From the UHGV virus genome UHGV-0253101: a stretch of DNA of 13,843 bases; one strand, written 5' to 3'. Source of the stretch: a virus. The notes below the pieces were generated by a model that was not told the origin of the DNA, made no database searches, and saw nothing but the letters and a program-made list of their open reading frames with translations. Both the position numbers and the translations under genes were made by a program. This document shows, in pieces, positions 1 through 13,843 of the stretch. Numbering within the stretch: the first letter of the stretch is position 1; each line of letters begins with the position of its first letter.

Positions 1-138
<138 letters not shown>

Positions 139-142
139 CTAG
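139..142. repeat. CTAG immediately flanking the IS5 end; probable 4-bp target-site duplication
   Basis: IS5 is known to make 4-bp duplications at YTAR targets, and CTAG abuts the inverted repeat. The second copy would lie at the other IS5 end, outside the window. Confidence 0.45.
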
Positions 143-296
143 AATAGGCAGAGCTAAGCTGTTCGTCTAATTTTGACAGACGTTCGTTATCGCAGATTTT
201 ATGTTCGATTGCTGTCGAAGCCTTTTGGCAGTCAAAGCTGGCTGCAAATGCACCCGGCGATGCCACTAACAATGATGCCAGTAGGATATTTTTCAT
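139..296 (-). pseudogene. Small secreted protein gene interrupted by IS5 after about 53 codons
   Basis: The ATG at 296 (complement of 294..296) has a GGAG about 7 nt upstream. It encodes MKNILLASLLVASPGAFA (signal-peptide-like, AFA-AS cleavage site) then SFDCQKASTAIEHKICDNERLSKLDEQL. The reading frame runs into the IS5 inverted repeat at 138 and stops inside IS5 at 111 (tracked ORF 111..323). The N-terminus tentatively resembles LprI/DUF1311-type periplasmic proteins. Confidence 0.5.
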
Positions 297-590
297 ATTC
301 ACTCCATAAATACAAAAGCGCATTACTATAGCACTTAACCGATCGCTTATCTCGCCCGTTCGTCATTCTTATCTAACCAGAACATGCGGCTGCCACAGCA
401 CATGTCGAGGATCGCTGCATGTCCAGTCACCGGTTGCCTCCTTTGCGCAATATCGCATTCAGATATTTGTTTTGATTCACTGATGGAAACGAGTTTCGCT
501 TAAGTAATTCCTCTCTCGATGGCATTGGCTTTACGCGTTGGCGAATAATCATTTCTGCCGGAAGAATGCCGGGATTGTATGCAAGTCCTC

Positions 591-881
591 TCATGATTTA
601 CTCTCAACGAACTGGTCAATAGCCATGCTAAGTGACATACCTAAAGTTTCGATATGCTGCTGAATATCCTGTAGCGTCTGCGCCTGAGATAACAGGATTT
701 CACGGTTGCATAACTCTTTAACCAGATGCTCAAACTTGCTGTAATAACCGATACGACTTAGTGTTTCTTTCCCTGCATTCTCGCCTTCTTTGATAATTCC
801 TCTTTCGCTAAGAATCAGATCGTGTTTGGTTCCGGTAATAACGTATTTTCCGAGGTCGATGTTTAGCTTCATTGTTTTCAT
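591..881 (-). CDS. hypothetical protein (about 97 aa), second gene of a two-gene minus-strand operon
   Basis: Part of tracked ORF 591..1031. The ATG at 881 ([14 protein letters not shown]...) has GAGGAA 8-12 nt upstream. An alternative ATG at 899 ([11 protein letters not shown]) sits 2 nt from the upstream gene's stop in an ATGACTGA arrangement. No recognisable motif. Confidence 0.5.
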
Positions 882-891
882 TGTTAATTCC

Positions 892-1185
892 TCAGTCATT
901 ACTGATAGCGCCATAGCGTGAGCGGTAATTACGCAGGCGAGGGTCAATTTCAGGGAAGTGGGTATATGTGGCTTTGCGGAATGGGCGGATTGATGTCTGG
1001 TAAATTCGCTCGCGTTCTTCTTTCTCTGCAAGCCATATACAATGGCGAAATTCCTTTTCCTCTTTCGTTTCCTGCGGTAGCGACATTATCCGGTCGTAGT
1101 TTTTTCTGAATTTATCCAGCACCTCCGATACGGAATTGCCGGAACAGCGGCGCGCGTCATCCTCACCATACAGAGGCGCTGGCAT
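892..1185 (-). CDS. hypothetical protein (97 aa), first gene of the two-gene minus-strand operon
   Basis: Tracked ORF with a strong AGGAGA Shine-Dalgarno 5-6 nt upstream of the ATG (complement of 1183..1185). Charged, Arg/Lys/Glu-rich protein with no recognisable catalytic motif. Confidence 0.55.
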   Translation of the reverse strand: MPAPLYGEDDARRCSGNSVSEVLDKFRKNYDRIMSLPQETKEEKEFRHCIWLAEKEERERIYQTSIRPFRKATYTHFPEIDPRLRNYRSRYGAISND

Positions 1186-1254
1186 GTTTTTCTCCTGATT
1201 AAATTGCGTGAATAGCGTGACGAGGGAAGGGGAGAGTTACTGGTGCAAAGGGTA

Positions 1255-1362
1255 TATATAACGAGCGTGTTCATCGGCTACATCGGTACTGACTCGATAG
1301 GTTCGCTTATCAAACGCTTCGCTGCTAAAAAAGCCGGAGTAGAAGATGGTGGAAATCAATAA
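1255..1362 (+). pseudogene. S: 3' remnant of a lambda-type holin S gene (last ~35 codons only)
   Basis: The frame ending at TAA 1360..1362 translates to ...[35 protein letters not shown], matching the C-terminal tail of lambda S as I recall it, and overlaps the R start as in lambda. An in-frame TAG at 1213..1215 and unrelated sequence upstream of about 1255 exclude a full-length holin. No plus-strand ORF of at least 60 aa ends here in the track. Confidence 0.7.
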
Positions 1363-1822
1363 TCAACGTAAGGCGTTCCTCGATATGCTGGCGTGGTCAG
1401 AGGGAACTGATAACGGACGTCAGAAAACCAGAAATCATGGTTATGACGTCATTGTAGGCGGAGAGCTATTCACTGATTACTCCGATCATCCTCGCAAACT
1501 TGTCACGCTAAACCCCAAACTCAAATCAACAGCAGCCGGGCGCTATCAGCTTCTTTCCCGTTGGTGGGATGCCTATCGTAAGCAGCTTGGTCTGAAAGAC
1601 TTCTCTCCCAAAAGTCAGGACGCTGTGGCATTGCAGCAGATTAAAGAGCGTGGCGCTTTACCGATGATTGACCGCGGTGATATCCGTCAGGCTATCGACC
1701 GTTGCAGCAATATCTGGGCTTCACTGCCGGGCGCTGGTTATGGCCAGTTCGAGCATGAGGCTGACAACCTGATTGCAAAATTCAAAGAGGCTGGCGGAAC
1801 GGTCAGAGAGATTGAGGTATGA
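1346..1822 (+). CDS. R: endolysin, lambda R-type lytic transglycosylase (158 aa)
   Basis: Protein [51 protein letters not shown]... is near-identical to lambda R as recalled. Its start overlaps the S remnant stop. Confidence 0.95.
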
Positions 1823-2256
1823 GCAGAGTGACCGCGATTATCTCCGCTCTGGTTATCTGCATCATCGTCTGCCTGTCATGGGCTGTTAATCATTACCGTG
1901 ATAACGCAATCGCCTACAAAGACCAGCGGGATAAAGCCACAACCATCATCGCTGATATGCAGAAGCGTCAACGTGACGTAGCAGAACTCGACGCCAGATA
2001 CACAAAGGAGCTTGCTGATGCTAACGCGACTATCGAAAGTCTCCGTGCTGATGTTTCTGCTGGTCGTAAGCGCCTGCAAGTCGCCGCCACCTGTGCAAAG
2101 TCAACGACCGGAGCCAGCAGCATGGGCGATGGAGAAAGCCCAAGACTTACAGCAGATGCTGAACTCAATTATTACCGTCTCCGAAGTGGAATAGACAGGA
2201 TAACCGCGCAGGTTAACTACCTGCAGGAGTACATCAGGACTCAGTGCCTGAAATAA
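1819..2256 (+). CDS. Rz: spanin inner-membrane subunit Rz (i-spanin), 145 aa
   Basis: ATGA overlap with the R stop. N-terminus [31 protein letters not shown] is a transmembrane segment, followed by a coiled-coil-like region as in lambda Rz. Confidence 0.9.
2012..2194 (+). CDS. Rz1: spanin outer-membrane lipoprotein subunit Rz1 (o-spanin), embedded in Rz in the +1 frame
   Basis: 60-aa ORF wholly inside Rz. Lipobox-like LLVVSAC followed by a proline-rich stretch ([16 protein letters not shown]), the architecture of lambda Rz1. Confidence 0.8.
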
Positions 2257-2287
2257 TTTTTTTGCAAATCACAAAGTCCATTTAATG

Positions 2288-2311
2288 AGCCTCGCGATGC
2301 GGGGCTTTTTT
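2288..2311 (+). terminator. rho-independent terminator-like hairpin downstream of Rz
   Basis: agcctcgc-gat-gcggggct forms an 8-bp stem (one G-U pair) with a 3-nt loop, followed by a T tract. Confidence 0.5.
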
Positions 2312-2458
2312 ATGTCCGCAGTAAACGCGCTTCACACGCGCGACTTATGAACACAGAACCTTTCAGGATGACCCTTGAGGATGCCGGTTTGGTGATCGGT
2401 ACCTTTCTGTGGGCCGGAATCCTGTGTGACAAGGTTCATCACTAAAAGGTAATTACTG

Positions 2459-2989
2459 ATGAAGTACCCAACAGTTATTGTCAATGGTGTGTCCGTTCGT
2501 GTTGATGAGGATGGACGCTACAACTTAAACGATCTCCATGCAGCAGCAGTTGCAAATGGAGAGGCTACAGAGCAACAGCGCCCAAGCCAGTTTTTGCGTA
2601 GCGCGCAGATAAAACGCTTCATCAAAGCACTGGAGGCCAAAGTGCAAAAAAGCACTTTGGAACAAATTCAACCACTTAAAATAATCAAAGGTGGTGCAGA
2701 ACCAGGTGTGTGGGGTGTTGAACTTCTGGCAATCAGATATGCAGCATGGATTAAGCCGGAATTTGAAATCGAAGTTTATGAAGTTTTCAAAACGGTTGTC
2801 CGTCTCGGCGTTGGCGCAATGTCCCGTCTGAATAGAATCGATCACATCATCAATACTGAAACCAAAGCGATAAGCCAGTGCGCAAGACAAATGGCTAAGT
2901 GGGGTGTTGGTGGGCGAAAAAGATTGCTTCATGTTGCACGTGAGAGAGCGGCAAATGAAGTGCAAATGTATTTGCCCGGGATGGTGTGA
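2459..2989 (+). CDS. KilA-N domain protein (176 aa), putative antirepressor or DNA-binding accessory protein
   Basis: AAGG ribosome-binding site before the ATG. N-terminal half (IVNGVSVRVDEDGRYNLNDLHAAA ... GVWGVELLAIRYAAWIKPEFEIEVYEVF) follows the KilA-N pattern of an N-terminal beta-rich segment then a conserved W-x-LA-x-YA-x-W-x-P-x-F block. C-terminal half has no recognised motif. Confidence 0.7.
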   Translation: MKYPTVIVNGVSVRVDEDGRYNLNDLHAAAVANGEATEQQRPSQFLRSAQIKRFIKALEAKVQKSTLEQIQPLKIIKGGAEPGVWGVELLAIRYAAWIKPEFEIEVYEVFKTVVRLGVGAMSRLNRIDHIINTETKAISQCARQMAKWGVGGRKRLLHVARERAANEVQMYLPGMV

Positions 2990-3094
2990 TTTCGCAGGTT
3001 AATCCGAGCAGTCCTTCAGTGAGGCTGCAATAATGCTTTATTCGTATGAAGACGAAGGGTAATCTGTAGACTCTGATTATCTAATGGAAGGTTT

Positions 3095-3301
3095 ATGATG
3101 GACAATTATTTTAAATCTGGCGATAACCGAGTATCTGATTCTGAGCACCAGCGTTTAGTGGCTACCAAAGCAGCTCTTGAAATTATCAAGGCCGCCGTAT
3201 CTGCCCCTACCCATGCGAAAAACGTGTCTTATGATTTGGAGGAGGCAATAAAATATCTTCCACGGTTGACTGATGCTATTCAGGAAACGATTGGCAAATA
3301 G
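3095..3301 (+). CDS. hypothetical small protein (68 aa)
   Basis: GGAAGG ribosome-binding site about 5 nt upstream of the ATG. Predicted helical and hydrophilic. Lies in a visibly AT-rich stretch. Confidence 0.45.
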   Translation: MMDNYFKSGDNRVSDSEHQRLVATKAALEIIKAAVSAPTHAKNVSYDLEEAIKYLPRLTDAIQETIGK

Positions 3302-3353
3302 CATTTGATTTTAGTTTTATTATCTCACCTTAAATATGAGTGAGATTAATACA

Positions 3354-3377
3354 AAGCTACCTACGAGTAGCTTTTTA
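3354..3377 (+). terminator. possible rho-independent terminator after the 68-aa ORF
   Basis: aagctac ... gtagctt inverted repeat (7-bp stem, 6-nt loop) followed by tttt. Confidence 0.4.
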
Positions 3378-3441
3378 ATGGCTTATACCTTACACGGGAT
3401 AACTTAACTGATATCCCCACAAGCGGATAAAGAGATTCTCA

Positions 3442-3567
3442 ATGTCCAACATCTACCAAATCACGTTAACCACCCAAACAGGCGAAACCGTTACGAGCAA
3501 GACGTCACGATTTCAGCATGAGTTGGTTAACGGCTTTGTGCCGCTTGTGATCGAGACGGGAGAGTGA
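3442..3567 (+). CDS. very small ORF (41 aa), speculative
   Basis: ATG...TGA encoding MSNIYQITLTTQTGETVTSKTSRFQHELVNGFVPLVIETGE with only a weak AAGAG upstream. The frame stays open for about 21 more codons past the TGA, so it may be a nonsense-interrupted longer gene. Confidence 0.2.
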   Translation: MSNIYQITLTTQTGETVTSKTSRFQHELVNGFVPLVIETGE

Positions 3568-3697
3568 CTGTATTTCTCTCCCGACAATGTGAAGCGCATA
3601 CAGTTCACGCCAGAATTGAATGATGAAGCGTGATAAGTGGCTATTTTGTGGTATAGGTTTATGCGCTAAAACAATCAATTAGCTCAGTCAATGATCT

Positions 3698-4222
3698 CTA
3701 TTGTCCTGCAACTTGTTTAGTGAGTCTTAGGATGATGCTGCCAAGAATAGCTATGAATTTTTCACGATTATTGGCATCTGGACGGTTAAGATTCAGCTCA
3801 ATGTCTCCAACTTTTATGCCGAATCTTGCTGAGTTAATGAGATCTTCCTGACCACCTCGGCTAATAAATGTTCGTAATGATTCAATTTCTGCGTCAGTTA
3901 TTTCCGGGTTGTCTATTTGATGAGAGCGAACATTTCTTATTCTATTTAGGCGTTTAAGTTCTGCGACGGAGTGTTCATTTAGGCCGAGGTTGGCAGCTAG
4001 CTGAATTTTTGCGGCATAGGTCATGGTTAAGTTTTCACCAAATCCATCAAATAGATTTTGGTTACCTACAGCGGCGCAACAAAATGCCTCAATCATTGCT
4101 TCTGTAATCAGATGTACTCTTAAAACCAAACCAATATCATCTTCAGTATTTACTAACCTTTCAATTCGTTGCCAAGTTGCTTCGTTCATTATGAACTTTG
4201 ATTCAAAAATTTCAGGATTCAT
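3698..4222 (-). CDS. HEPN-like protein (174 aa); candidate abortive-infection or toxin-type defence gene
   Basis: Tracked ORF antisense to the late operon. An R-N-V-R-S-H motif (Rx4H, residues 96-101, coded at 3920..3937) fits the HEPN Rx4-6H ribonuclease signature, in a predicted all-helical protein. Visibly AT-rich compared with the flanking terminase gene. AGGT about 6 nt upstream of the ATG. Confidence 0.6.
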   Translation of the reverse strand: MNPEIFESKFIMNEATWQRIERLVNTEDDIGLVLRVHLITEAMIEAFCCAAVGNQNLFDGFGENLTMTYAAKIQLAANLGLNEHSVAELKRLNRIRNVRSHQIDNPEITDAEIESLRTFISRGGQEDLINSARFGIKVGDIELNLNRPDANNREKFIAILGSIILRLTKQVAGQ

Positions 4223-4249
4223 TTATTTACCTTATCAGCAGGGGAAAAT

Positions 4250-4777
4250 ATGGCGCTCACTGACAAACAAGAAATGTTCTGTCGCGAGTACCTCATCGAT
4301 TTAAACGCCACGCAAGCGGCTATTCGGGCGGGGTACAGCGCAAAAACAGCCAACCGTACTGCGTCCGAAAACATGTCAAAACCTGACATACAACTCAGAA
4401 TCTCCGAATTGAAAGCACAACGCAATGACTCTGTTGGAATAAATGCAGAATATGTACTTAATCGCCTTATTGAAATCGACCAGATGGATGTGCTCGACAT
4501 TCTCCTGCAAAACGGTGAGTTAAAGCCCATTAAAGACTGGCCTAAGGTATGGCGCACAACGTTATCAGGAATGGATGTTGTGGAGATGGTATCCGCAGAT
4601 AGTGCAGCACTCCTGAAGAAAATCAAATGGCCTGATAAGGTTAAAAACCTCGAACTTCTTGGTAAGCATGTTTCTGTTCAGGCGTTTAAAGAACAAGCTT
4701 CTCACGAACTAACAGGCAAAGACGGCGGCGCAATCCAGATTGAAACATCACCGATGAGCACTCTATTCGGAAAATGA
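4250..4777 (+). CDS. terminase small subunit (175 aa), Terminase_2-like N-terminal DNA-binding domain
   Basis: N-terminus MALTDKQEMFCREYLIDLNATQAAIRAGYS is the characteristic small-terminase helix-turn-helix signature. ATGA overlap with the large terminase start. Confidence 0.9.
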   Translation: MALTDKQEMFCREYLIDLNATQAAIRAGYSAKTANRTASENMSKPDIQLRISELKAQRNDSVGINAEYVLNRLIEIDQMDVLDILLQNGELKPIKDWPKVWRTTLSGMDVVEMVSADSAALLKKIKWPDKVKNLELLGKHVSVQAFKEQASHELTGKDGGAIQIETSPMSTLFGK

Positions 4778-6099
4778 CCTCGATTAATCCTATCTTTGAA
4801 CCGTTCATTGAGGCGCATCGCTACAAAGTCGCCAAAGGCGGTCGAGGTAGCGGTAAGTCATGGGCAATTGCGAGGCTTCTTGTTGAAGCGGCGCGTCGGC
4901 AGCCTGTGCGTATTCTTTGCGCTCGTGAGCTGCAAAACAGTATCAGCGATTCGGTAATCCGGTTGCTTGAAGACACCATCGAGCGTGAAGGATATTCGGC
5001 TGAGTTTGAAATTCAGCGTTCCATGATTCGTCATCTCGGAACGAATGCTGAATTCATGTTCTACGGCATCAAAAACAACCCGACGAAGATTAAATCGCTC
5101 GAAGGCATTGATATCTGTTGGGTGGAAGAAGCTGAAGCGGTAACGAAGGAATCATGGGATATCCTGATACCAACCATCCGCAAGCCATTTTCCGAAATAT
5201 GGGTGAGCTTCAACCCGAAGAACATACTCGACGATACCTATCAGCGGTTCGTCGTAAATCCTCCTGATGATATTTGCCTGCTGACGGTGAACTACACCGA
5301 CAACCCGCACTTTCCTGAAGTTCTCCGTCTGGAGATGGAAGAGTGCAAACGCAGAAATCCGACACTGTATCGTCACATCTGGCTTGGTGAGCCAGTAAGC
5401 GCAAGTGATATGGCAATCATCAAACGTGAATGGCTTGAAGCCGCAACCGATGCGCACAAGAAACTCGGATGGAAAGCGAAAGGCGCTGTTGTCTCTGCGC
5501 ATGACCCGTCAGATACAGGGCCGGATGCTAAAGGTTATGCATCGCGTCACGGTTCGGTTGTTAAGCGCATTGCCGAAGGTCTGCTGATGGACATCAATGA
5601 AGGTGCTGACTGGGCAACTTCGCTGGCGATTGAAGACGGTGCTGACCATTACCTGTGGGATGGTGATGGTGTTGGTGCTGGCCTACGCAGACAGACAACG
5701 GAAGCGTTCTCCGGCAAGAAAATCACCGCCACGATGTTCAAGGGCAGTGAATCGCCATTCGATGAAGATGCGCCGTATCAGGCCGGAGCATGGGCTGATG
5801 AAGTCGTACAGGGCGACAACGTTCGCACTATTGGTGATGTGTTCCGCAATAAGCGAGCGCAATTCTATTACGCGCTGGCTGACAGGCTGTATCTGACATA
5901 TCGGGCGGTTGTTTACGGTGAGTATGCAGACCCCGACGACATGCTGAGTTTCGACAAAGAAGCGATAGGCGAGAAGATGCTGGAGAAGCTGTTTGCAGAA
6001 CTGACGCAGATTCAGCGCAAATTCAATAACAACGGGAAGCTGGAGCTAATGACTAAGGTCGAAATGAAGCAGAAGCTCGGTATTCCATCTCCTACGTGA
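4774..6099 (+). CDS. terminase large subunit (441 aa), probably C-terminally truncated
   Basis: Walker [10 protein letters not shown] near the N-terminus, then a nuclease-domain-like C-terminal half. Ends ...[10 protein letters not shown]-stop, whereas homologues as I recall them continue with an SP-D/N-L-ADAL segment. Confidence 0.9.
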
Positions 6100-6100
6100 G

Positions 6101-7456
6101 GTGAATAAATGCCGATTGTTGGCTGGTATCGGTGGTGTCAACTCAAACGCTCCGAGCGTAAATGACATCGGCAATACGCTTCAGCTTATCAGGCAGAACA
6201 ATGATATTGAGCGTTCAGGCGCTAACAATGTTGGGCTGACTGCTTTGCAAGGCCTTTCAGGTATTGCGGGTGTTTTTCAGCAGGAAAAGCAGGCTCAGCG
6301 GCAGAAAGAATTTCAGCAGGCATACGCTAAAGCTTATGCGTCTGGTGATCGCGGTGCTTTGCGTCAGTTGGCTACTCAATATCCAGACCAGATTGAATCT
6401 GTTCGTAAAGGCATGGGATTCATTGATGAAGACCAGCGTAATTCTATCGGCACCTTAGCGGCTGGCGCACGCCTTGCGTCATCGTCTCCAGAAGCAATGC
6501 AATCATGGCTGCAAAACAACGCCAAGGAACTGACTCGCGTCGGTGTTGACCCTAACAGCGTTGCTCAGATGTATCAGCAGAATCCTTCAGGATTTGGTGA
6601 GTTTGTTGATCACCTTGGGATGGCTGCGCTTGGTCCGATTGATTACTTCAATGTTCAGGACAAGATAGCTGGTCGTGAGATTGACCGAGGCAGACTGGCA
6701 GAGACAATCCGCAGCAATCAGGCTGGCGAGGCGCTAACAGCGCGTGGTCAGAATATCACGATGCGCGGTCAGGATTTATCGATGCAGAGAGCATCAATGA
6801 AAGGGGCGGTTGGGAATAATGAGCGTACAGTTCAGTTAGCAGATGGCAGAACTGTAACGGTAGGCGGGAAGCTTCACGGCGCTGGGGCTAATGCGTTCTA
6901 CGAAGGTATCGACAACGAGGGGAATATGGTTCGCGTTCCTGCTGGTTCTATTGCCGCTCCGGCTACATCGGCAGCAAGCGCGCAGAATTACGCAATGAAG
7001 AAAGATCTTGATGCAATTTCTGGTGCATCAATTGACGATCTTGGCTTCATGACTGGCATTACAGGCTCTTCAGGTTCTCCTGCTCTTGGTGCAGATATTC
7101 GTAGCCGTGCATCTGGTGGTGATCAGAGGAAACTATACAACGCTGCACAGCGAATCCAAGGAAAGATGCAGAATCAGGGCATTGCAGCAGCCAGAGACAT
7201 GGGGGCATCCGGTATCAACACCGTTGCAGAAGCAAAGATGTATTTTCAAGGTATGCCACAGGTTGATTTCTCAAGCCCTGAAGCACTGCAACAATCAATG
7301 CGCGACATTCAGCAATATACCGACAATTACAACCAGCAATATAACGTTAATGTCGGTAATGGCGGGAAGAAATCATCAAGGCAACAGCCAGCTACTCAGC
7401 AATCAGCAGGAGGTAGCTACACGTCAAAATCAGGCATTCAATTTACGGTGGAATGA
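6101..7456 (+). CDS. putative DNA-ejection (injection) protein, P22 gp20-like (451 aa), N-terminus uncertain
   Basis: Starts at a GTG one nucleotide after the terminase stop. Gln/Ala/Gly-rich with no catalytic motif. Size and position (second-to-last late gene before the immI-like region) match P22 gene 20 (about 471 aa). Confidence 0.5.
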
Positions 7457-9294
7457 TGAAAGTAACTGCAAACGGTAAGACATTTACCTTCCCTGATGGT
7501 ACGAGCACGGAAGATATTGGCACCGCCATTGATGAGTATTTTGCTGGTCAGGCTGTTCAGCAACAAACAGTTAATCAGGCCAATAATGCACCAACACGGG
7601 AAGAACCATCATTGATGCAACAAGCTGGCGATTGGCTCACTGGTGGTCAAAGTGCAGGGCAAATTGCAGAACAGGCTGGTCGTGGTCTGGTAAACATACC
7701 ATTTGACGTATTACAGGGCGGCGCAAGTCTGATTAATGCAATCAGTCAGGGGCTTGGTGGCCCCAAGGTTTTGGATGATGTTTATCGTCCAGTAGACAGA
7801 CCGACAGACCCCTACGCTCAAGCTGGAGAAACAATTGGCGGGTATTTAGTTCCAGGAGTTGGAACGGCAGGAAGCATGGCTATTGGATCACTGGCAGAGG
7901 CCGCAAATCAGAAAGGTGATTTCGCACAAAATGCAGCTAAAAATGCCGGAGTTAACCTTGCCGCTCAGGGTGTTCTTTCCGCAGCAGCAAAGGGAATAGG
8001 GCGTGGAATAACGGCTATAAAAGGTGATATTGCGCCAGAAGTGGCAAAGAAAATTGCCACATCAGAATCGATGGGCGTGACACCAATGACATCTGATGTT
8101 ATCCCGCCGAAAAATGCTTTCACTCGCGGACTTACTCAGGATGCTGAGGGGGCTTTGCTCGGGACAGGCTCAAAGCGAGCGGAGCAATATGCAACGCGTA
8201 GTAAGCTGGTAAGCAATTATTTTGACCGTTTTGGTGAGTACAACCCTGATGATGTGGTGAGATCTCTGACCACCACGTTAAGGGGACGGAAGGATGCCGC
8301 TGGCGCTGTTATCAATGACGTCACCAATAAAATGGGTAATGCCGCAGTTGATACCACAAATACCATGAATGCTCTGAATACAGCGATCGCAAGACAGGAA
8401 CGGCTTGGGACTTCTGCCAATCAAAACCTGCTTACATCCTTGCGTAACCTACGTGAAGAATTAGCAAACCCTGCAACTGATTTGGATGTTACGTTTGATC
8501 TCTTGCGCCAGCACAGAACAGCATTTAGATCTAATGTTCAGGGAGATGCCATGGTCTTCCCCAACCAGGCAAAAGCAGCTACCAATATGGTAGAGAATGC
8601 AATGTCAAAAGACCTTCGTAACGCAGTTGCCAAAAACCTCGGTGCTTCAGACGCAGCAAAATACCTTAAAGCAAATTCCGATTATGCAAACGTTTATAAT
8701 AAGGTGCTTAATAAAAACATTGCTAACAAGCTCAACAAGGCAAGCAGTGAAGCCAGTCCTGAACTTATAAATACTGTTGTATTAAGCAGAAAACCATCTG
8801 ACGTGAAACGAATCTGGAGCGCATTGGATGATAAAGGGAAAGATGCTATGCGTGCAGCTTACGTCAGCAAAATAGCGGAAAAGGCCGGTGACTCTCCAGC
8901 CAAGTTCATCACGGAAGTTAATAAGCTGAAATCTCAGTCAGGCGGTGAAATTTACAACACTATTTTTTCTGGAAAGCACATGAAAGAACTTGATGCTCTT
9001 CATGAAGTTCTACAGCAAGCAGCAAGATCAGACACCGCAAATGTAGTAACTCAGACGGGGCAATCGCAAGCCAACAGGATAAGGACGATTGGCGCAACTA
9101 CGACTCTTGGCGTATCAATGGGGCTTGAGGCTGGTTTCGGTGCAATGATGCGCTTGTATGAATCCAAAGCAGCAAGGAATGCGCTCTTACGTCTGGCAAA
9201 CACTAAAGCTGGAACGCCAGCTTATGAAAGAGCGCTAAATCAGGCGGCTACTGCCGTGCGCCCGCTCTTAGTTAACGAAGCTACCCGGCAGTAG
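7453..9294 (+). CDS. putative DNA-ejection (injection) protein, P22 gp16-like (613 aa)
   Basis: ATGA start/stop overlap with the upstream gene. N-terminus [31 protein letters not shown] resembles prophage DNA-transfer proteins as I recall them. Size (613 vs about 609 aa) and position match P22 gene 16. Confidence 0.55.
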
Positions 9295-9316
9295 CACTGT
9301 AAGCCAAGGACGGCAT

Positions 9317-9799
9317 TTATTTTATAGTTTTTATGAATTCTTTATTAAATCCCTTTGCTTCTCCGGGGTATCTTCCGAAGACAATTTTTATAAAAACAGA
9401 AAAAATAAAGATAGCAACGCTTAACAACAATTGCAGTATCATTGGAACCCAAAGAACTACAGGCTCTATATTCATGAAACCAAATATTCTTCCGGCGATC
9501 ATGGCGAAGTACCACACTGTTATCAGCAAACTTAGTGGCATATGAATTACTGATATTACCAATCCAAGAGCATCAGTAATTCTGTTTTCAAATTTTTCAG
9601 GGGAAAACTTTTCTTTAAGGTAATTCAGTGCGCAGGCCTCATTCTCTGGATTTTCAGCATTTTTCCCTATAGCAATAGAAATCTCAGATATCCTTGATTC
9701 AATTCTTTTACGTTTAATAAAACTAGAAAAAAAGAACCACGCAATCTGCAACCCTATCCCCAGAAATAGAGTTGCGGCAACTAGCACAGCGTAACTCAT
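9317..9799 (-). CDS. multi-pass membrane protein (161 aa); candidate SieA-like superinfection-exclusion protein, by position
   Basis: Internal start of tracked ORF 9317..10027 ([24 protein letters not shown]...) with AGGAGG upstream. About three hydrophobic helices (residues ~3-25, ~83-105, ~112-140) around a charged loop. Strongly AT-rich. Occupies the slot between gene 16 and mnt that holds sieA in P22. Confidence 0.55.
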
Positions 9800-9841
9800 A
9801 GAATCAGACACACCAACCTCCTTAGTTTTGCGCAGGATACC

Positions 9842-10207
9842 ATGAAAAAAGTTAACATTGGAAACGTACCAAAGATGCTCGTTCCGCTCTTTGAGAGCGG
9901 TACAATTGTGTTTTGTAGAGACTTTCCAGAATGGCAACGCCTGCATCAAAAACTTGGCGTTGACGTGCATGACTCGGACGCCAACGGAGCGTCTCATACA
10001 ATGAGTAGCGAGAATGGTGTTTTGCATGTGATAGGCGTGTTCAATGGCAAACTATCTACTATTGCCCATGAGTGCGCTCACATGGCATTCGATATCTGCT
10101 CAAGGGTAGGTGTTGATGTTGAACCAGGAAGAGCCAACGAGACTTACTGCTACTTAATGAGCAGGCTTGTTGAGTTCTGCGAGCGACATATCAAAAAGCC
10201 GGAGTGA
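9842..10207 (+). CDS. small HExxH-motif protein (121 aa), possible minimal zinc metallopeptidase-like protein
   Basis: Tracked ORF divergent from the membrane protein gene, with a 42-bp gap between them. H-E-C-A-H at residues 76-80 (10067..10081) within [11 protein letters not shown]. Several Cys/His residues. No confident family assignment. Confidence 0.5.
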
Positions 10208-10220
10208 CCCGGCTTGATTA

Positions 10221-10400
10221 TTACTTTTTGCTGTCTGGAGTTCGCTTATCCAATACCCAGCCATGACCTGGCTTTGTTGTTGGTGGAAGCCTTTCGTTGT
10301 CCTTGACGGTTGCAAAATTGTCTTTCTTACCGCCGCGTGGGCCAACTTCTTGGTATATTCCGCCGTTTTTTCCTGTGTTTTCACCTGGTTTTTTCGCCAT
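10221..10400 (-). CDS. small basic Lys/Gly-rich protein (59 aa), tentatively YjzC-like
   Basis: Internal ATG of tracked ORF 10221..10415 with GAGG about 7 nt upstream. Protein MAKKPGENTGKNGGIYQEVGPRGGKKDNFATVKDNERLPPTTKPGHGWVLDKRTPDSKK. Family resemblance is from memory and uncertain. Confidence 0.4.
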   Translation of the reverse strand: MAKKPGENTGKNGGIYQEVGPRGGKKDNFATVKDNERLPPTTKPGHGWVLDKRTPDSKK

Positions 10401-10490
10401 GATATACCTCAACATACACCCGTTATTGGGCGATTAAATATTGATCTCATTTTATAAGTAGTCAATATGGCCCAGGTAAATGCAAAAATT

Positions 10491-10516
10491 AACCCACCTT
10501 CAGGTGGGTTTTTTGT
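10491..10516. terminator. rho-independent terminator-like hairpin overlapping the mnt stop codon, possibly bidirectional
   Basis: aacccacc-ttca-ggtgggtt is a perfect 8-bp stem followed by tttt on the plus strand. On the minus strand the same stem is followed by aattttt. Confidence 0.55.
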
Positions 10517-10751
10517 ACAAATCCTTCAGCGTATCAAACACCATCTTCTTAACAAGCTCTGACTGCTCATCAGCGATGCGTTCCGCATCGTCTCGATAGC
10601 CTGAAATTTTGGATGGCTTTGATACAGCATCAGTCACTATCTGAACTAATTCTGAATTAAGAGAGCGGCCATTGGATTTGGCTCGCTGTTTTAGTTTTTC
10701 CTTTAATTCGTAAGGTAGCCGCAGATTAAATTGCGGGTCATCTCTTCCCAT
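10500..10751 (-). CDS. mnt: Mnt repressor (83 aa), Arc/MetJ-type ribbon-helix-helix
   Basis: Protein MGRDDPQFNLRLPYELKEKLKQRAKSNGRSLNSELVQIVTDAVSKPS...DDAERIADEQSELVKKMVFDTLKDLYKKPT matches P22 Mnt closely as recalled, in length and sequence. Confidence 0.9.
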   Translation of the reverse strand: MGRDDPQFNLRLPYELKEKLKQRAKSNGRSLNSELVQIVTDAVSKPSKISGYRDDAERIADEQSELVKKMVFDTLKDLYKKPT

Positions 10752-10814
10752 TCTTGATGCCTCGCTTTTGTGAGTGGATCGGCATCTTATTATCTGCTGG
10801 TTGCATCCTCAATA

Positions 10815-10829
10815 AGACCACAGTGGTCT
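10815..10829. promoter_or_regulatory. putative Mnt operator: 15-bp palindrome AGACCAC-A-GTGGTCT
   Basis: Near-perfect dyad (7-bp arms) between the divergent mnt and tailspike starts. Resembles the P22 mnt operator core (GGTCCAC-G-GTGGACC as recalled). A partial half-site CACTGTGG lies at about 10852..10859. Confidence 0.5.
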
Positions 10830-10897
10830 CTTTGTTTGATTAATAATGCATCACTGTGGCAATGCTGCGGCGATTCCTTGTATCTGGAGCAAATTAA

Positions 10898-13843
10898 ATG
10901 ACAGACATTACAGCCAATGTTGTAGTGAGTATGCCTTCGCAACTCTTCACTATGGCGCGTTCTTTTAAAGCCGTAGCCAATGGCAAAATTTATATCGGTA
11001 AAATTGACACTGACCCGGTAAATCCTGAAAACCAGATTCAGGTTTATGTAGAGAACGAAGACGGTTCTCACATTCCTGTTTCGCAACCAATAATCATTAA
11101 CGCTGCTGGATATCCGGTATATAACGGACAGATTGCCAAATTCGTTACCGTGCAAGGCCATTCTATGGCTGTTTATGATGCGTATGGTGCGCAGCAGTTC
11201 TATTTTCCTAATGTGCTGAAGTATGATCCTGATCAGTTACGGCAGCAATTAGAAGACCCAGATGGAGCGAATAAATACCCAAAACTTCAGATAGCAAGAT
11301 GGAGAGACAGTTATGATGTAAGAGGTTGGGGGGCTATTGGTGATGGTGTTCATGATGACACATCAGCTCTATCAGAATTACTTTCTGTTGCAACAGGTGG
11401 TGAAAAGATAGATGGGCGAGGGCTTACTTTTAAAGTATCAACTCTTCCAGATGTCAGTCGATTTAAAAATGCTCGTTTTTTATTTGAGAGAATACCGGGT
11501 CAGCCTCTTTTTTATGCTTCTGAAGATTTTATCCAGGGAGAGTTATTTAAAATTACAGATACACCGTGGTACAACGCCTGGACGCAGGATAAAACGTTTG
11601 TATATGACAATGTCATCTATGCGCCTTTTATGGCTGGAGACCGCCATGGTGTAAATAACCTCCATGTTGCATGGGTTCGCTCAGGAGATGACGGGAAGAC
11701 CTGGACAACGCCGGAATGGCTTACAGATTTACATGAAAACTATCCCACAGTTAACTATCACTGCATGAGTATGGGGGTTGTCAGAAATCGCCTTTTTGCT
11801 GTAATTGAGACGCGGACCGTGAGCGGAAATAAACTGCAGGTTGCAGAGTTGTGGGATCGCCCAATGAGTCGCAGCCTTCGCGTTTATGGTGGTATAACGA
11901 AAGCAGCAAATCAGCAAGTCGCTTATATTCGCATTACTGATCACGGATTATTTGCTGGTGATTTTGTCAACTTCTCAAACTCTGGTGTTACAGGTGTTAC
12001 CGGGAATATGACGGTGACTACTGTTATTGATAAAAATACTTTTACAGTTACGACGCAAAATACCCAGGATGTGGATCAGAATAACGAGGGTAGATACTGG
12101 AGTTTTGGTACATCATTTCACTCGTCACCATGGAGAAAAACCAGTCTTGGAACTATTCCTTCTTTTGTTGACGGAAGCACTCCTGTTACTGAGATTCACA
12201 GTTTTGCGACGATTAGCGATAACAGTTTTGCTGTTGGCTACCATAATGGTGATATTGATCCACGCGAGCTTGGGATACTCTATTTCTCTGATGCTTTCGG
12301 TTCTCCTGGTAGCTTTGTTCGCAGACGCATACCTGTAGAATATGAGGCGAATGCATCTGAGCCATGTGTAAAATATTATGATGGCATTCTGTATCTGACG
12401 ACCAGGGGGACATTAAGTACTCAACCCGGTAGTTCATTGCACAGAAGCTCTGATTTAGGTACATCATGGAATTCTCTTCGCTTCCCAAATAATGTTCATC
12501 ACTCAAACCTTCCTTTTGCCAAAGTTGGCGATGAGCTGATTATTTTTGGCAGTGAGCGCGCATTTGGTGAGTGGGAAGGAGGAGAACCTGATAACCGTTA
12601 TGCAGGAAATTATCCAAGAACATTTATGACCAGAGTTAACGTCAATGAGTGGAGTCTGGATAATGTAGAGTGGGTTAATGTTACTGATCAGATTTATCAG
12701 GGCGGAATAGTTAACTCTGCGGTTGGTGTTGGTTCAGTTTGTATCAAAGACAACTGGCTGTACTACATTTTCGGTGGGGAAGACTTTCTAAACCCATGGA
12801 GCATAGGGGATAACAACAGAAAATATCCTTATGTTCACGATGGTCACCCGGCTGATTTGTATTGTTTCAGGGTGAAAATTAAACAGGAAGAATTTGTTTC
12901 AAGGGATTTTGTCTACGGAGCCACTCCTAACAGAACGCTTCCTACTTTTATGTCGACGTCAGGCGTGAGGACGGTTCCTGTACCCGTTGATTTCACAGAT
13001 GATGTTGCCGTCCAGTCACTGACTGTCCATGCAGGTACATCAGGACAAGTTCGCGCGGAAGTCAAACTTGAGGGTAATTACGCCATTATTGCGAAGAAAG
13101 TACCGTCTGATGATGTTACCGCTCAGAGATTAATCGTTAGCGGCGGTGAAACAACGTCTTCAGCAGATGGTGCAATGATAACGTTGCATGGTTCCGGAAG
13201 CAGTACTCCACGTCGCGCGGTATATAACGCACTCGAACATCTTTTTGAGAACGGAGATGTTAAACCTTATCTTGATAATGTAAATGCTCTTGGTGGTCCG
13301 GGAAACAGGTTCTCGACAGTTTATCTTGGCTCCAATCCTGTGGTTACCAGTGACGGAACATTAAAGACAGAGCCGGTCTCTCCTGACGAAGCATTGCTGG
13401 ATGCCTGGGGTGACGTCAGGTATATCGCTTATAAATGGCTGAACGCTGTCGCTATAAAGGGGGAAGAAGGGGCGAGGATACATCATGGTGTAATCGCGCA
13501 GCAACTTCGTGATGTTCTTATTTCTCACGGACTCATGGAAGAAGAAAGCACAACATGCCGCTATGCGTTTCTTTGCTATGACGATTATCCCGCAGTATAT
13601 GATGACGTCATTACTGGCCAAAGGGAAATGCCGCTGACTGATAATGACGGGAGCATCATTGTTGATGAGGATGATAATCCAGTGATGGTAATGGAAGACA
13701 TCATTGAGCGCGTTGAAATAACGCCAGCAGGATCTAGATGGGGGGTCAGACCTGATCTCTTATTCTATATCGAGGCGGCATGGCAGCGCAGAGAAATAGA
13801 AAGAATAAAAGCTAGGTTAGACTTAATAGAAGGGAAGCACTAA
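10898..13843 (+). CDS. tailspike protein (981 aa): P22 gp9-type head-binding domain, sialidase-like domain with two Asp-boxes (probable endosialidase) and C-terminal intramolecular-chaperone autoproteolytic domain
   Basis: GGAG about 8 nt before the ATG. N-terminus [50 protein letters not shown]...VLKYDPDQ is collinear with the P22 gp9 head-binding domain. Asp-boxes SGDDGKTW (11681..11704) and SSDLGTSW (12446..12469) fit the S-x-D-x-G-x-T-W consensus. The C-terminal ~160 aa ([10 protein letters not shown] ... [13 protein letters not shown] ...) resemble the peptidase S74 chaperone domain of endosialidases and some tail fibres. Confidence 0.9.

Follow-up and report, generated by a model that had tools for sequence, protein, structure and literature searches.

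A predicted endosialidase tailspike of CUS-3 type, intact in the remnant of a P22-like prophage

The window analysed here, a stretch of 13,843 nucleotides from the virus genome UHGV-0253101, carries at its right end a 981-codon open reading frame that runs from ATG to TAA without interruption, the last base of its stop codon being the last base of the window. The surrounding prophage is heavily reduced. Two questions arise: what the protein is, and why its frame is still open. Comparisons of sequence and domain composition indicate that the ORF very probably encodes the tailspike, an endosialidase, of a CUS-3-like temperate podophage (P22 type) from K1-encapsulated Escherichia coli, and that its frame is intact because the deletion is recent. 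The features on which this reading is built are collected in Table 1.

Table 1 Features of the tailspike gene, its upstream region, and the prophage remnant (positions in the window).
Feature	Position	Strand	Basis or remark
IS5 copy end, within the remnant's left arm	1–138	-	100% alignment to the left end of the EC931 IS5
Holin gene 3' fragment, marks the second deletion	1255–1362	+	EC931 annotation mapped to the window (offset 16061); SW4848 intact layout
Large terminase, truncated to 441 aa from a native 471 (last 31 aa lost)	4774–6099	+	PHROG and Pfam; SW4848 length; breakpoint
19-nt joint left by the 8.5-kb deletion of head genes	6095–6113		Alignments to the SW4848 intact prophage and G749
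gp20-type ejection protein, first 28 nt replaced, native start lost	6101–7456	+	Pfam Inj_translocase; PHROG 917; alignment
gp16-type DNA transfer (ejection) protein, intact	7453–9294	+	PHROG 770, E = 2e-278; RefSeq protein identical between EC931 and SW4848
mnt repressor gene (P22 Mnt homologue), divergent, immediately upstream of the tailspike	10500–10751	-	PDB 1MNT, E = 3e-34; Pfam Arc and Repressor_Mnt
Perfect palindrome AGACCACAGTGGTCT in the mnt–tailspike interval	10815–10829		Sequence and stem scan
Conserved leader before the tailspike start, common to the CUS-3 'bsq1' boundary sequence	10845–10897	+	CUS-3 alignment; bsq1 annotated in CP000711
Tailspike gene, siaK1-type endosialidase	10898–13843	+	981 aa plus TAA; RefSeq WP_058905271.1
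P22 gp9-type head-binding (particle adaptor) domain, aa 1–113	10898–11236	+	Pfam PF09008 Head_binding, E = 1e-66
Endosialidase N-terminal extension, aa 146–212	11333–11533	+	Pfam PF12218 End_N_terminal, E = 9e-37
Six-bladed β-propeller catalytic domain, aa 213–662	11534–12883	+	Pfam PF12217 End_beta_propel, E = 8e-233
Asp-box 1, SGDDGKTW, aa 262–269	11681–11704	+	Pattern search; endoNF counterpart SGDDGQTW
β-barrel domain inserted in the propeller, aa 324–406	11867–12115	+	Pfam PF12195 End_beta_barrel, E = 1e-46
Asp-box 2, SSDLGTSW, aa 517–524	12446–12469	+	Pattern search; endoNF counterpart SRDIGQTW
Stalk (End_tail_spike) domain, aa 663–817	12884–13348	+	Pfam PF12219, E = 8e-78
C-terminal intramolecular chaperone/self-cleavage domain (Peptidase S74), aa 818–981	13349–13840	+	Pfam PF13884; PDB 3GW6

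The preliminary description had read in this protein a head-binding domain collinear with P22 gp9, two canonical Asp-boxes as in endosialidases, and an S74-type chaperone domain at the C terminus, in an architecture of CUS-3 type, and had proposed an alignment to endosialidases as a check of the catalytic residues; the comparisons bear out each of these points. At the N terminus, the head-binding part has matches in PDB entries 1LKT (E = 9e-45), 2VNL, 7SG7, and 8TVR. Residues 1–127 align with the head-binding domains of the P22, Sf6, and HK620 tailspikes (1LKT, 2VNL, and 7SG7), and P22 gp9, Sf6 gp14, and the HK620 tailspike are collinear with the window protein over residues 1 to about 125 (E = 1e-45 to 1e-65). 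An N-terminal gp9 head-binding domain, recognized with both Pfam and PDB, makes the tailspike P22-like (Lederbergvirus type). The likeness is restricted to the adaptor, as the receptor-binding parts of the P22, Sf6, and HK620 proteins are β-helix endorhamnosidases or endo-N-acetylglucosaminidases that act on O-antigen and carry no S74 domain.

The remainder of the protein has the propeller, barrel, stalk, and self-cleaving chaperone of endoNF, the tailspike of the T7-like phage K1F (PDB 1V0E, 3GVL, and 3GW6). Homology to endoNF begins at residue 145/146, and residues 145–817 align with 1V0E and 3GVL with an E value of 0 and 66% identity over 665 aligned residues (aa 146–817); a full-length alignment was also obtained with phi92 (4HIZ). 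All four Pfam families of the GH58 fold, PF12217, PF12195, PF12219, and PF12218, score far over their cut-offs. The two proteins differ in their N-terminal adaptors, T7 gp17-like in K1F and P22 gp9-like in the window tailspike, and in a 7-residue insertion, FVDGSTP (residues 423–429), in the latter. In endoNF, the β-barrel inserted in the propeller is a polysialic acid-binding site (PMC12632334).

The active-site residues listed for endoNF in the same paper are all conserved: H250, R456, E488, R503, and R554 of the propeller align with endoNF H350, R549, E581, R596, and R647. A search with the pattern S-x-D-x-G-x-T/S-W finds exactly two canonical Asp-boxes in the tailspike, the number expected of GH58, and both are conserved in endoNF. 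The stalk ends at T817, the predicted final residue of the mature protein, and the crystal chains of endoNF stop at the aligned Thr. The Pfam Peptidase_S74 match (residues 818–878, E = 2e-10) follows directly after the stalk, while the endoNF chaperone domain (3GW6) aligns with residues 698–979, with a match of E = 2e-70 over residues 780–979. The cleavage dyad of S74 domains consists of a Ser and a Lys five residues on, as described in the MYRF paper (PMC3742443); on this description and the 3GW6 alignment, the dyad is present as S818, which aligns with the mutated Ser911Ala position of 3GW6, and K823, which aligns with its Lys. These features of the tailspike are beyond a chance origin.

As judged from sequence, the tailspike is a chimera of a P22-type adaptor and an endosialidase part. 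Nucleotides 1–449 of the gene are common to other P22-like tailspikes, and the head-binding part alone has matches in the tailspike genes of about 1,000 further E. coli genomes. Nucleotides 522–2914, which take in all of the catalytic part and the greater portion of the chaperone domain, are 99.5% identical to the tail fibre gene of Escherichia phage vB_EcoP_ZX5 (Uetakevirus, MW722083), whose product of 1,039 residues has an N-terminal adaptor unrelated to that of the window protein and belongs to an epsilon15-like genome. A tailspike module swap of exactly this type has been described in a review (PMC5380687). No module boundary was seen in the base composition across the tailspike gene.

The SiaK1 tailspike of CUS-3 (EndoN-CUS3; CP000711, ABQ88383; Stummeyer et al. 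2006, PMID 16689790) likewise consists of 981 residues in an identical domain order, with 99.1% nucleotide identity between the genes and 971 of the 981 residues in common. The ten substitutions are V9I, P43T, I59V, P121T, A207V, D454G, V480A, G767R, T807I, and A832T; D454G lies two residues from R456, and G767R and T807I are located in the stalk. More than half of the 26 nucleotide differences (15) cluster in the head-binding domain. The siaK1 record (CP000711) carries the GO evidence code IDA for endo-alpha-sialidase activity, and cleavage of alpha-2,8-polysialic acid may be ascribed to the window tailspike by transfer from this 99%-identical enzyme.

Two genomes set this gene in its chromosomal and capsular context. 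E. coli EC931 is 100% identical to the window over positions 139–13843 (13.7 kb), and the intact 41-kb prophage of strain SW4848 is 100% identical over positions 6114–13843. The tailspike gene shows 100% nucleotide identity to both copies, one RefSeq accession covering an intact and a decayed copy, and of the 12 intact proteins that are common to EC931 and SW4848 within this stretch, 11 share their accessions, the exception being the small terminase. Statements on neuO, the att site, and the K1 locus, which are located outside the window, refer to EC931 as the closest complete genome; repeat counts and joints were taken from a tandem-repeat tool, alignments, and direct reading. A K1-encapsulated host had been suggested at the outset, with the neuO gene just past the right edge if present, and both expectations agree with what EC931 contains. 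Its K1 capsule cluster comprises kpsFEDUCS and neuS/E/C/A/B, with a neuS 99.8% identical to that of the K1 strains S88, UTI89, and CE10 and distinct from the group at ~87%. The ATG of neuO stands 154 nt past the tailspike stop and is followed by 35 AAGACTC heptanucleotide repeats, in phase OFF; neuO of SW4848 has 23 such repeats.

An open frame may still encode an enzyme that is inactive or of changed specificity, for instance toward O-acetylated or K92 polysialic acid, as a result of the ten substitutions. Seven of them fall outside the adaptor, among them D454G near R456 and the two in the stalk, but none of them affects the five active-site residues, either Asp-box, or the cleavage dyad, the same RefSeq protein occurs in the apparently complete SW4848 prophage, which would need a working tailspike, and the host-type neuS is of K1 type. 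We consider such a loss or shift of function highly improbable. For a functional K1 endosialidase, the mode of action can be transferred from solved and assayed orthologues: three chains would fold with the aid of the C-terminal chaperone domain, which would cut itself off between T817 and S818 by means of the S818/K823 dyad; the P22 gp9-type N-terminal domain would dock the trimer onto the tail; and the propeller, barrel, and stalk would bind alpha-2,8-polysialic acid, the endolytic cleavage of which would allow the virion to tunnel through the K1 capsule.

The window is part of the non-viable remnant of a CUS-3-like prophage, presumably located, as in EC931, at the lambda attachment site. 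The earlier impression that head genes had been deleted proves right: the large terminase ORF is followed directly by the gene for the gp20-type ejection protein. Relative to SW4848, one deletion, 8,538 bp long, took away the C terminus of the terminase, the genes for portal, scaffold, coat, head completion, and tail, and gp7; another eliminated the genes for immunity and replication, the nin genes, the antiterminator, the late promoter, and the start of the holin gene, so that ~24 kb of the prophage are gone in all. With the portal-to-gp7 and early/late-control regions absent, the terminase, gp20, and holin genes truncated, and IS5 inserted, the element is not a functional (inducible) prophage. 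The position of IS5 differs between the window and EC931, which shows that the window does not come from EC931 itself. The 19 nt at the head-gene joint have a loose likeness to the gp20 start of other alleles; a simple microhomology deletion was considered here and set aside, since neither flank is matched cleanly by these nucleotides. The window limits are arbitrary (it starts inside IS5 and stops at the tailspike stop codon), which might suggest that the deletion is an artefact of assembly or of the window and that the prophage is really complete; the joint, however, is identical base for base in the independently finished EC931 chromosome, and both of its flanks are continuous within the window, leaving this explanation a practically negligible probability. 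With gathering thresholds applied, Rfam gave no match anywhere in the window.

Rather than CUS-3 proper, the element is a mosaic of CUS-3-like type that occupies the lambda att site, lacks ant, and has an unrelated integrase of lambda type. In EC931, the remnant is flanked by ybhC and ybhB/bioA and has the lambda core GCTTTTTTATACTAA at its right end, and the SW4848 element likewise occupies the ybhC-ybhB/bioA position, with the lambda att core; the CUS-3 location at argW next to dsdC and the CUS-3 integrase are found in neither, the 356-aa integrase showing 23% identity over 114 aa to CUS-3 Int. CUS-3 carries ant (within immI) and two 'boundary sequences' between mnt and the tailspike gene, whereas in the window the tailspike follows directly after mnt; only 146 nt separate the two genes, of which the final ~55 nt alone match CUS-3 bsq1. 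The CUS-3 arrangement of siaK1 with neuO and its AAGACTC repeats directly downstream is present, as seen in the EC931 and SW4848 loci. Frequent decay, and a second site for CUS-3-like elements, located between pgl and bioA, have already been reported (PMC9659370), and the prophages described there from E. coli CE10 and IAI39 have the chromosomal site and the neuO-attR-ybhB junction in common with the present element; this junction occurs in 8 complete genomes, CE10 and IAI39 among them. At ~17 kb without IS5, the EC931-type copy stands at the small end against the 20–50 kb published for pgl-bioA elements (PMC9659370), from which it also differs by the terminase-gp20 deletion joint, private to the window/EC931 copy.

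The preliminary description left two explanations for the intact ORF, a recent deletion or retention for a function; the sequence comparisons favour the first, and the second loses ground. Under retention, the tailspike would be kept by selection in a decayed prophage and serve the host or other phages, possibly in K1 capsule trimming or turnover or by donation to superinfecting P22-like particles, and in this variant, which lacks ant, a Mnt-controlled promoter could drive its expression. The ORF is indeed whole although most of the prophage is gone, and mnt and the perfect palindrome stand directly upstream, with neither arc nor ant between. The palindrome AGACCACAGTGGTCT is a candidate Mnt operator, presumably resembling that of P22. 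The neighbouring neuO, moreover, is viewed in the literature as retained in decaying CUS-3-like elements (PMC9659370).

Against retention, the window does not differ by a single substitution from the intact prophage of SW4848 across 7.7 kb, hypothetical genes and intergenic DNA included, which leaves no time for selection, and the deletion joint is found in 1 of 5,426 complete genomes, that of EC931. Tailspike genes of other genomes are interrupted by IS3 or ISCro1, or reduced to nt 1531–2946, and their loss is thus tolerated. The tailspike also occurs without neuO in some genomes (181 with the tailspike vs 158 with neuO, some att-lambda copies lacking neuO); the related idea that the tailspike is kept because neuO depends on it was rejected on these same counts. 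With the holin truncated, a cytoplasmic enzyme would have no obvious exit, and a sigma-70 promoter scan of positions 9200–11100 found no site before the tailspike and 4 sites in all vs 3.9 in shuffles. We regard retention by selection as very unlikely. The ORF would instead be intact because the deletions are very recent, as indicated by the same tailspike accession in an intact and a decayed copy and by the single-genome distribution of the joint.

With a recent deletion, the tailspike would be a passenger beside the phase-variable capsule O-acetyltransferase gene neuO just past the window. Hardly to be expected, a decayed, ant-less att-lambda element might still make P22-adaptor endosialidase trimers under Mnt control, which could confer K1 specificity on superinfecting phages of P22 type (phenotypic mixing) or remodel the host capsule; if true, the tailspike-neuO pair would be no debris but a domesticated module for capsule editing.

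The tailspike is an already well-described enzyme of CUS-3-like E. coli prophages, a correct and ordinary find: published work already covers the tailspike chimera and its enzymology, the phase variation of neuO, the second site of integration, and the tendency of such elements to decay (PMID 16689790; PMC5380687; PMC9659370; PMC13001214). Its importance beyond correct annotation is small. The gene is a marker of an extraintestinal E. coli background with a K1 capsule and of a CUS-3-like element that carries neuO, and the remnant offers a clean snapshot of early prophage decay, datable thanks to another strain, SW4848, in which the 41-kb copy is intact and its proteins are identical.

The tailspike gene is a single unbroken frame of 981 codons from ATG to TAA, as confirmed by the ORF listing and translation, and the last nucleotide of the window is the end of its stop codon. 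Pfam detects six domains, one of them nested in the propeller, and a motif search turns up two canonical Asp-boxes and no others, as proposed in the preliminary description; both are kept in endoNF, the endosialidase of phage K1F. Among solved structures, the head-binding domains of P22, Sf6, and related tailspikes match residues 1-127, endoNF (1V0E and 3GVL) matches residues 145-817 with E=0, and 3GW6, the endoNF stalk and chaperone domain, matches residues 698-979. The protein thus has the P22 gp9-type head-binding domain, the sialidase fold, and the S74-type chaperone end that had been claimed for it.

Features of the tailspike and of the surrounding prophage remnant (nt, window positions; aa, tailspike residues)
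Feature	Position	Strand	Basis
Terminal 138 nt of an IS5 copy, reverse orientation	nt 1-138
abc2, P22-type anti-RecBCD gene	nt 892-1185	-
3' holin fragment	nt 1255-1362	+
Lysozyme gene	nt 1346-1822
Rz gene	nt 1819-2256
Head-gene deletion joint	nt 6095-6113
SieA-like superinfection-exclusion gene	nt 9317-10027	-	PHROG 7745
Perfect 15-nt palindrome AGACCACAGTGGTCT	nt 10815-10829
Tailspike gene	nt 10898-13843	+	ORF listing, translation
Cluster of differences from siaK1	nt 10921-11072
Head_binding	aa 1-113		Pfam, E=1e-66
End_N_terminal	aa 146-212		Pfam
End_beta_propel	aa 213-662		Pfam, E=8e-233
Asp-box SGDDGKTW	aa 262-269		Pattern search
End_beta_barrel (nested inside propeller)	aa 324-406		Pfam
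Asp-box SSDLGTSW	aa 517-524		Pattern search
End_tail_spike	aa 663-817		Pfam
Peptidase_S74	aa 818-878		Pfam

Alignment with the crystallised part of endoNF gave 66% identity (440 of 665 aligned residues). The endoNF active site, made up of H350, R549, E581, R596, and R647 according to a recent deep mutational scan (PMC12632334), is identical at all five positions, the tailspike counterparts being H250, R456, E488, R503, and R554. Alignment of the chaperone domain with 3GW6 pairs S818 with the Ser911Ala position and K823 with the Lys five residues further on. S818 and K823 are thus the Ser/Lys dyad that carries out self-cleavage in endosialidases (PMC3742443).

The likeness to the tailspike of the K1-specific prophage CUS-3 extends over the entire gene: siaK1 (CP000711), whose record names an endosialidase tailspike and cites direct-assay evidence, is 99.1% identical at the nucleotide level. 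Ten of the 981 residues differ between the proteins, but the catalytic, Asp-box, and cleavage residues are all unchanged, and judged by sequence the tailspike is CUS-3 SiaK1 in every respect tested. Of the 26 nucleotide differences, 15 are grouped within 150 nt of the head-binding domain, which suggests a patch acquired by recombination instead of point mutation.

The chimeric origin described for the gene is borne out by the database matches of its modules. Tailspike genes of over a thousand E. coli genomes, and those of other P22-like phages, match its first ~340-450 nt; the full gene occurs in 181 of 5,426 complete genomes. Across gene nucleotides 522-2914 (window 11419-13811), the catalytic and chaperone modules, identity is 99.5% both to vB_EcoP_ZX5, in its tail-fibre gene, and to two unannotated "Phi05" phage records. 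vB_EcoP_ZX5 is an epsilon15-like temperate phage (Uetakevirus) whose own N-terminal adaptor differs. These matches point to a very recent module exchange between different podophage genera. The swap between P22 adaptor and endosialidase is a textbook case of tailspike module exchange (PMC5380687, which cites Stummeyer et al. 2006).

The chromosome of E. coli EC931, a urine isolate from China, contains window 139-13843 at 100% identity and differs only in where one IS5 lies. There the element sits between ybhC and ybhB/bioA and carries the lambda core GCTTTTTTATACTAA at its right end. Its 356-residue integrase (23% identity over 114 residues to CUS-3 Int) is essentially unrelated to that of CUS-3. 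Strictly speaking the element is not CUS-3, since it differs in site (not argW) and integrase and has no ant; this CUS-3-like variant at the lambda att site is already published, and the neuO-attR-ybhB junction is present in eight complete genomes, including CE10 and IAI39. In strain SW4848 the same site holds a copy of ~41 kb that appears complete and runs from integrase through neuO, with immunity, replication, nin, antiterminator, lysis, terminase, portal, scaffold, coat, head-completion, tail, and ejection genes.

Scored against the SW4848 copy, the window bears three lesions, so the element is defective, as had been supposed from its missing head genes. The first is a loss of 8,538 bp, which begins 31 codons short of the large terminase end and stops 28 nt inside gp20, with a 19-nt replacement, CGTGAGGTGAATAAATGCC, that matches neither flank of the intact prophage; this filler gives the truncated terminase a stop codon and gp20 a GTG start. 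The second, also large, joins abc2 to the holin fragment and took out the entire early, immunity, and late-control region: the genes for immunity and replication are lost, together with the gp23-type antiterminator and the late promoter. Lysozyme and Rz are still intact, without holin. The third is the IS5, inserted at CTAG within an LprI-like gene. In the EC931 remnant IS5 lies ~490 nt further right; the source strain is therefore closely related to EC931, and its IS5 has been active independently. The SieA-like gene, which is intact and lies between the ejection genes and mnt, may be a second gene of the remnant that benefits the host.

The open frame had been ascribed either to a recent deletion or to retention for a function. 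The intact SW4848 prophage shows 100% identity over window 6114-13843, even in hypothetical genes and in intergenic DNA, and the deletion joint occurs in one of the 5,426 genomes. Of 12 intact proteins common to EC931 and SW4848 in this stretch, 11 have the same RefSeq accession, among them the tailspike (WP_058905271.1), the small terminase being the exception. In other genomes the tailspike is interrupted by IS3 or ISCro1, or truncated; more genomes carry it (181) than carry neuO (158). These comparisons favour recent deletion over retention, and nothing requires selection to account for the open frame.

Since the late promoter and the antiterminator have been lost, and the DNA upstream of the gene yielded no promoter-like site, we infer that the tailspike is now a silent passenger. 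A P22 Mnt homologue (1MNT, E=3e-34) is encoded just upstream and the palindrome lies between mnt and the tailspike, so that expression from a Mnt-controlled promoter is possible. The mnt-to-tailspike stretch (within 10500-10897) has neither arc nor ant, unlike P22 and CUS-3, and its match to the CUS-3 "bsq1" boundary sequence is confined to the final ~55 nt ahead of the tailspike ATG.

The acetyltransferase gene neuO, predicted just past the right edge, is invisible here because the window reaches no further than the stop codon of the tailspike. In EC931, an ATG 154 nt past that stop precedes 35 perfect AAGACTC repeats and, after them, a hexapeptide-repeat acyltransferase body (30058-30953 of the EC931 locus, L002); SW4848 has 23 repeats (27887-28049 of its locus, L006) and the CUS-3 record 19. 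By the published rule (PMC13001214), repeat numbers that are not multiples of three, such as 35 and 23, mean phase OFF, in agreement with an annotated C-terminal-only neuO ORF that lies out of frame with the ATG. The 19 of CUS-3 are no multiple either, so all three assemblies show the OFF state. EC931 also has kpsFEDUCS and neuS/E/C/A/B adjoining pheV, and its neuS is 99.8% identical to those of the K1 strains S88, UTI89, CE10, and APEC O2:K1, set apart from a ~87% group. The suggested K1 host is thus supported for the nearest complete genome.

The sequence comparisons establish the domain layout, the catalytic and cleavage residues, the chimeric make-up, the defective prophage, and how recent its deletion is. 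By analogy with close, experimentally studied homologues, the protein would trimerise with the help of its C-terminal domain, cleave itself between T817 and S818, dock as a trimer onto a P22-type tail, and cut alpha-2,8-polysialic acid processively. The initial observation is confirmed and its interpretation supported; the tailspike itself is an already known feature. The IS5 end, the private filler-DNA joint, and the ant-less immI region are useful for annotation, as is the fact that P22-like and epsilon15-like adaptors carry catalytic modules that are nearly identical, and they leave this assessment unchanged.
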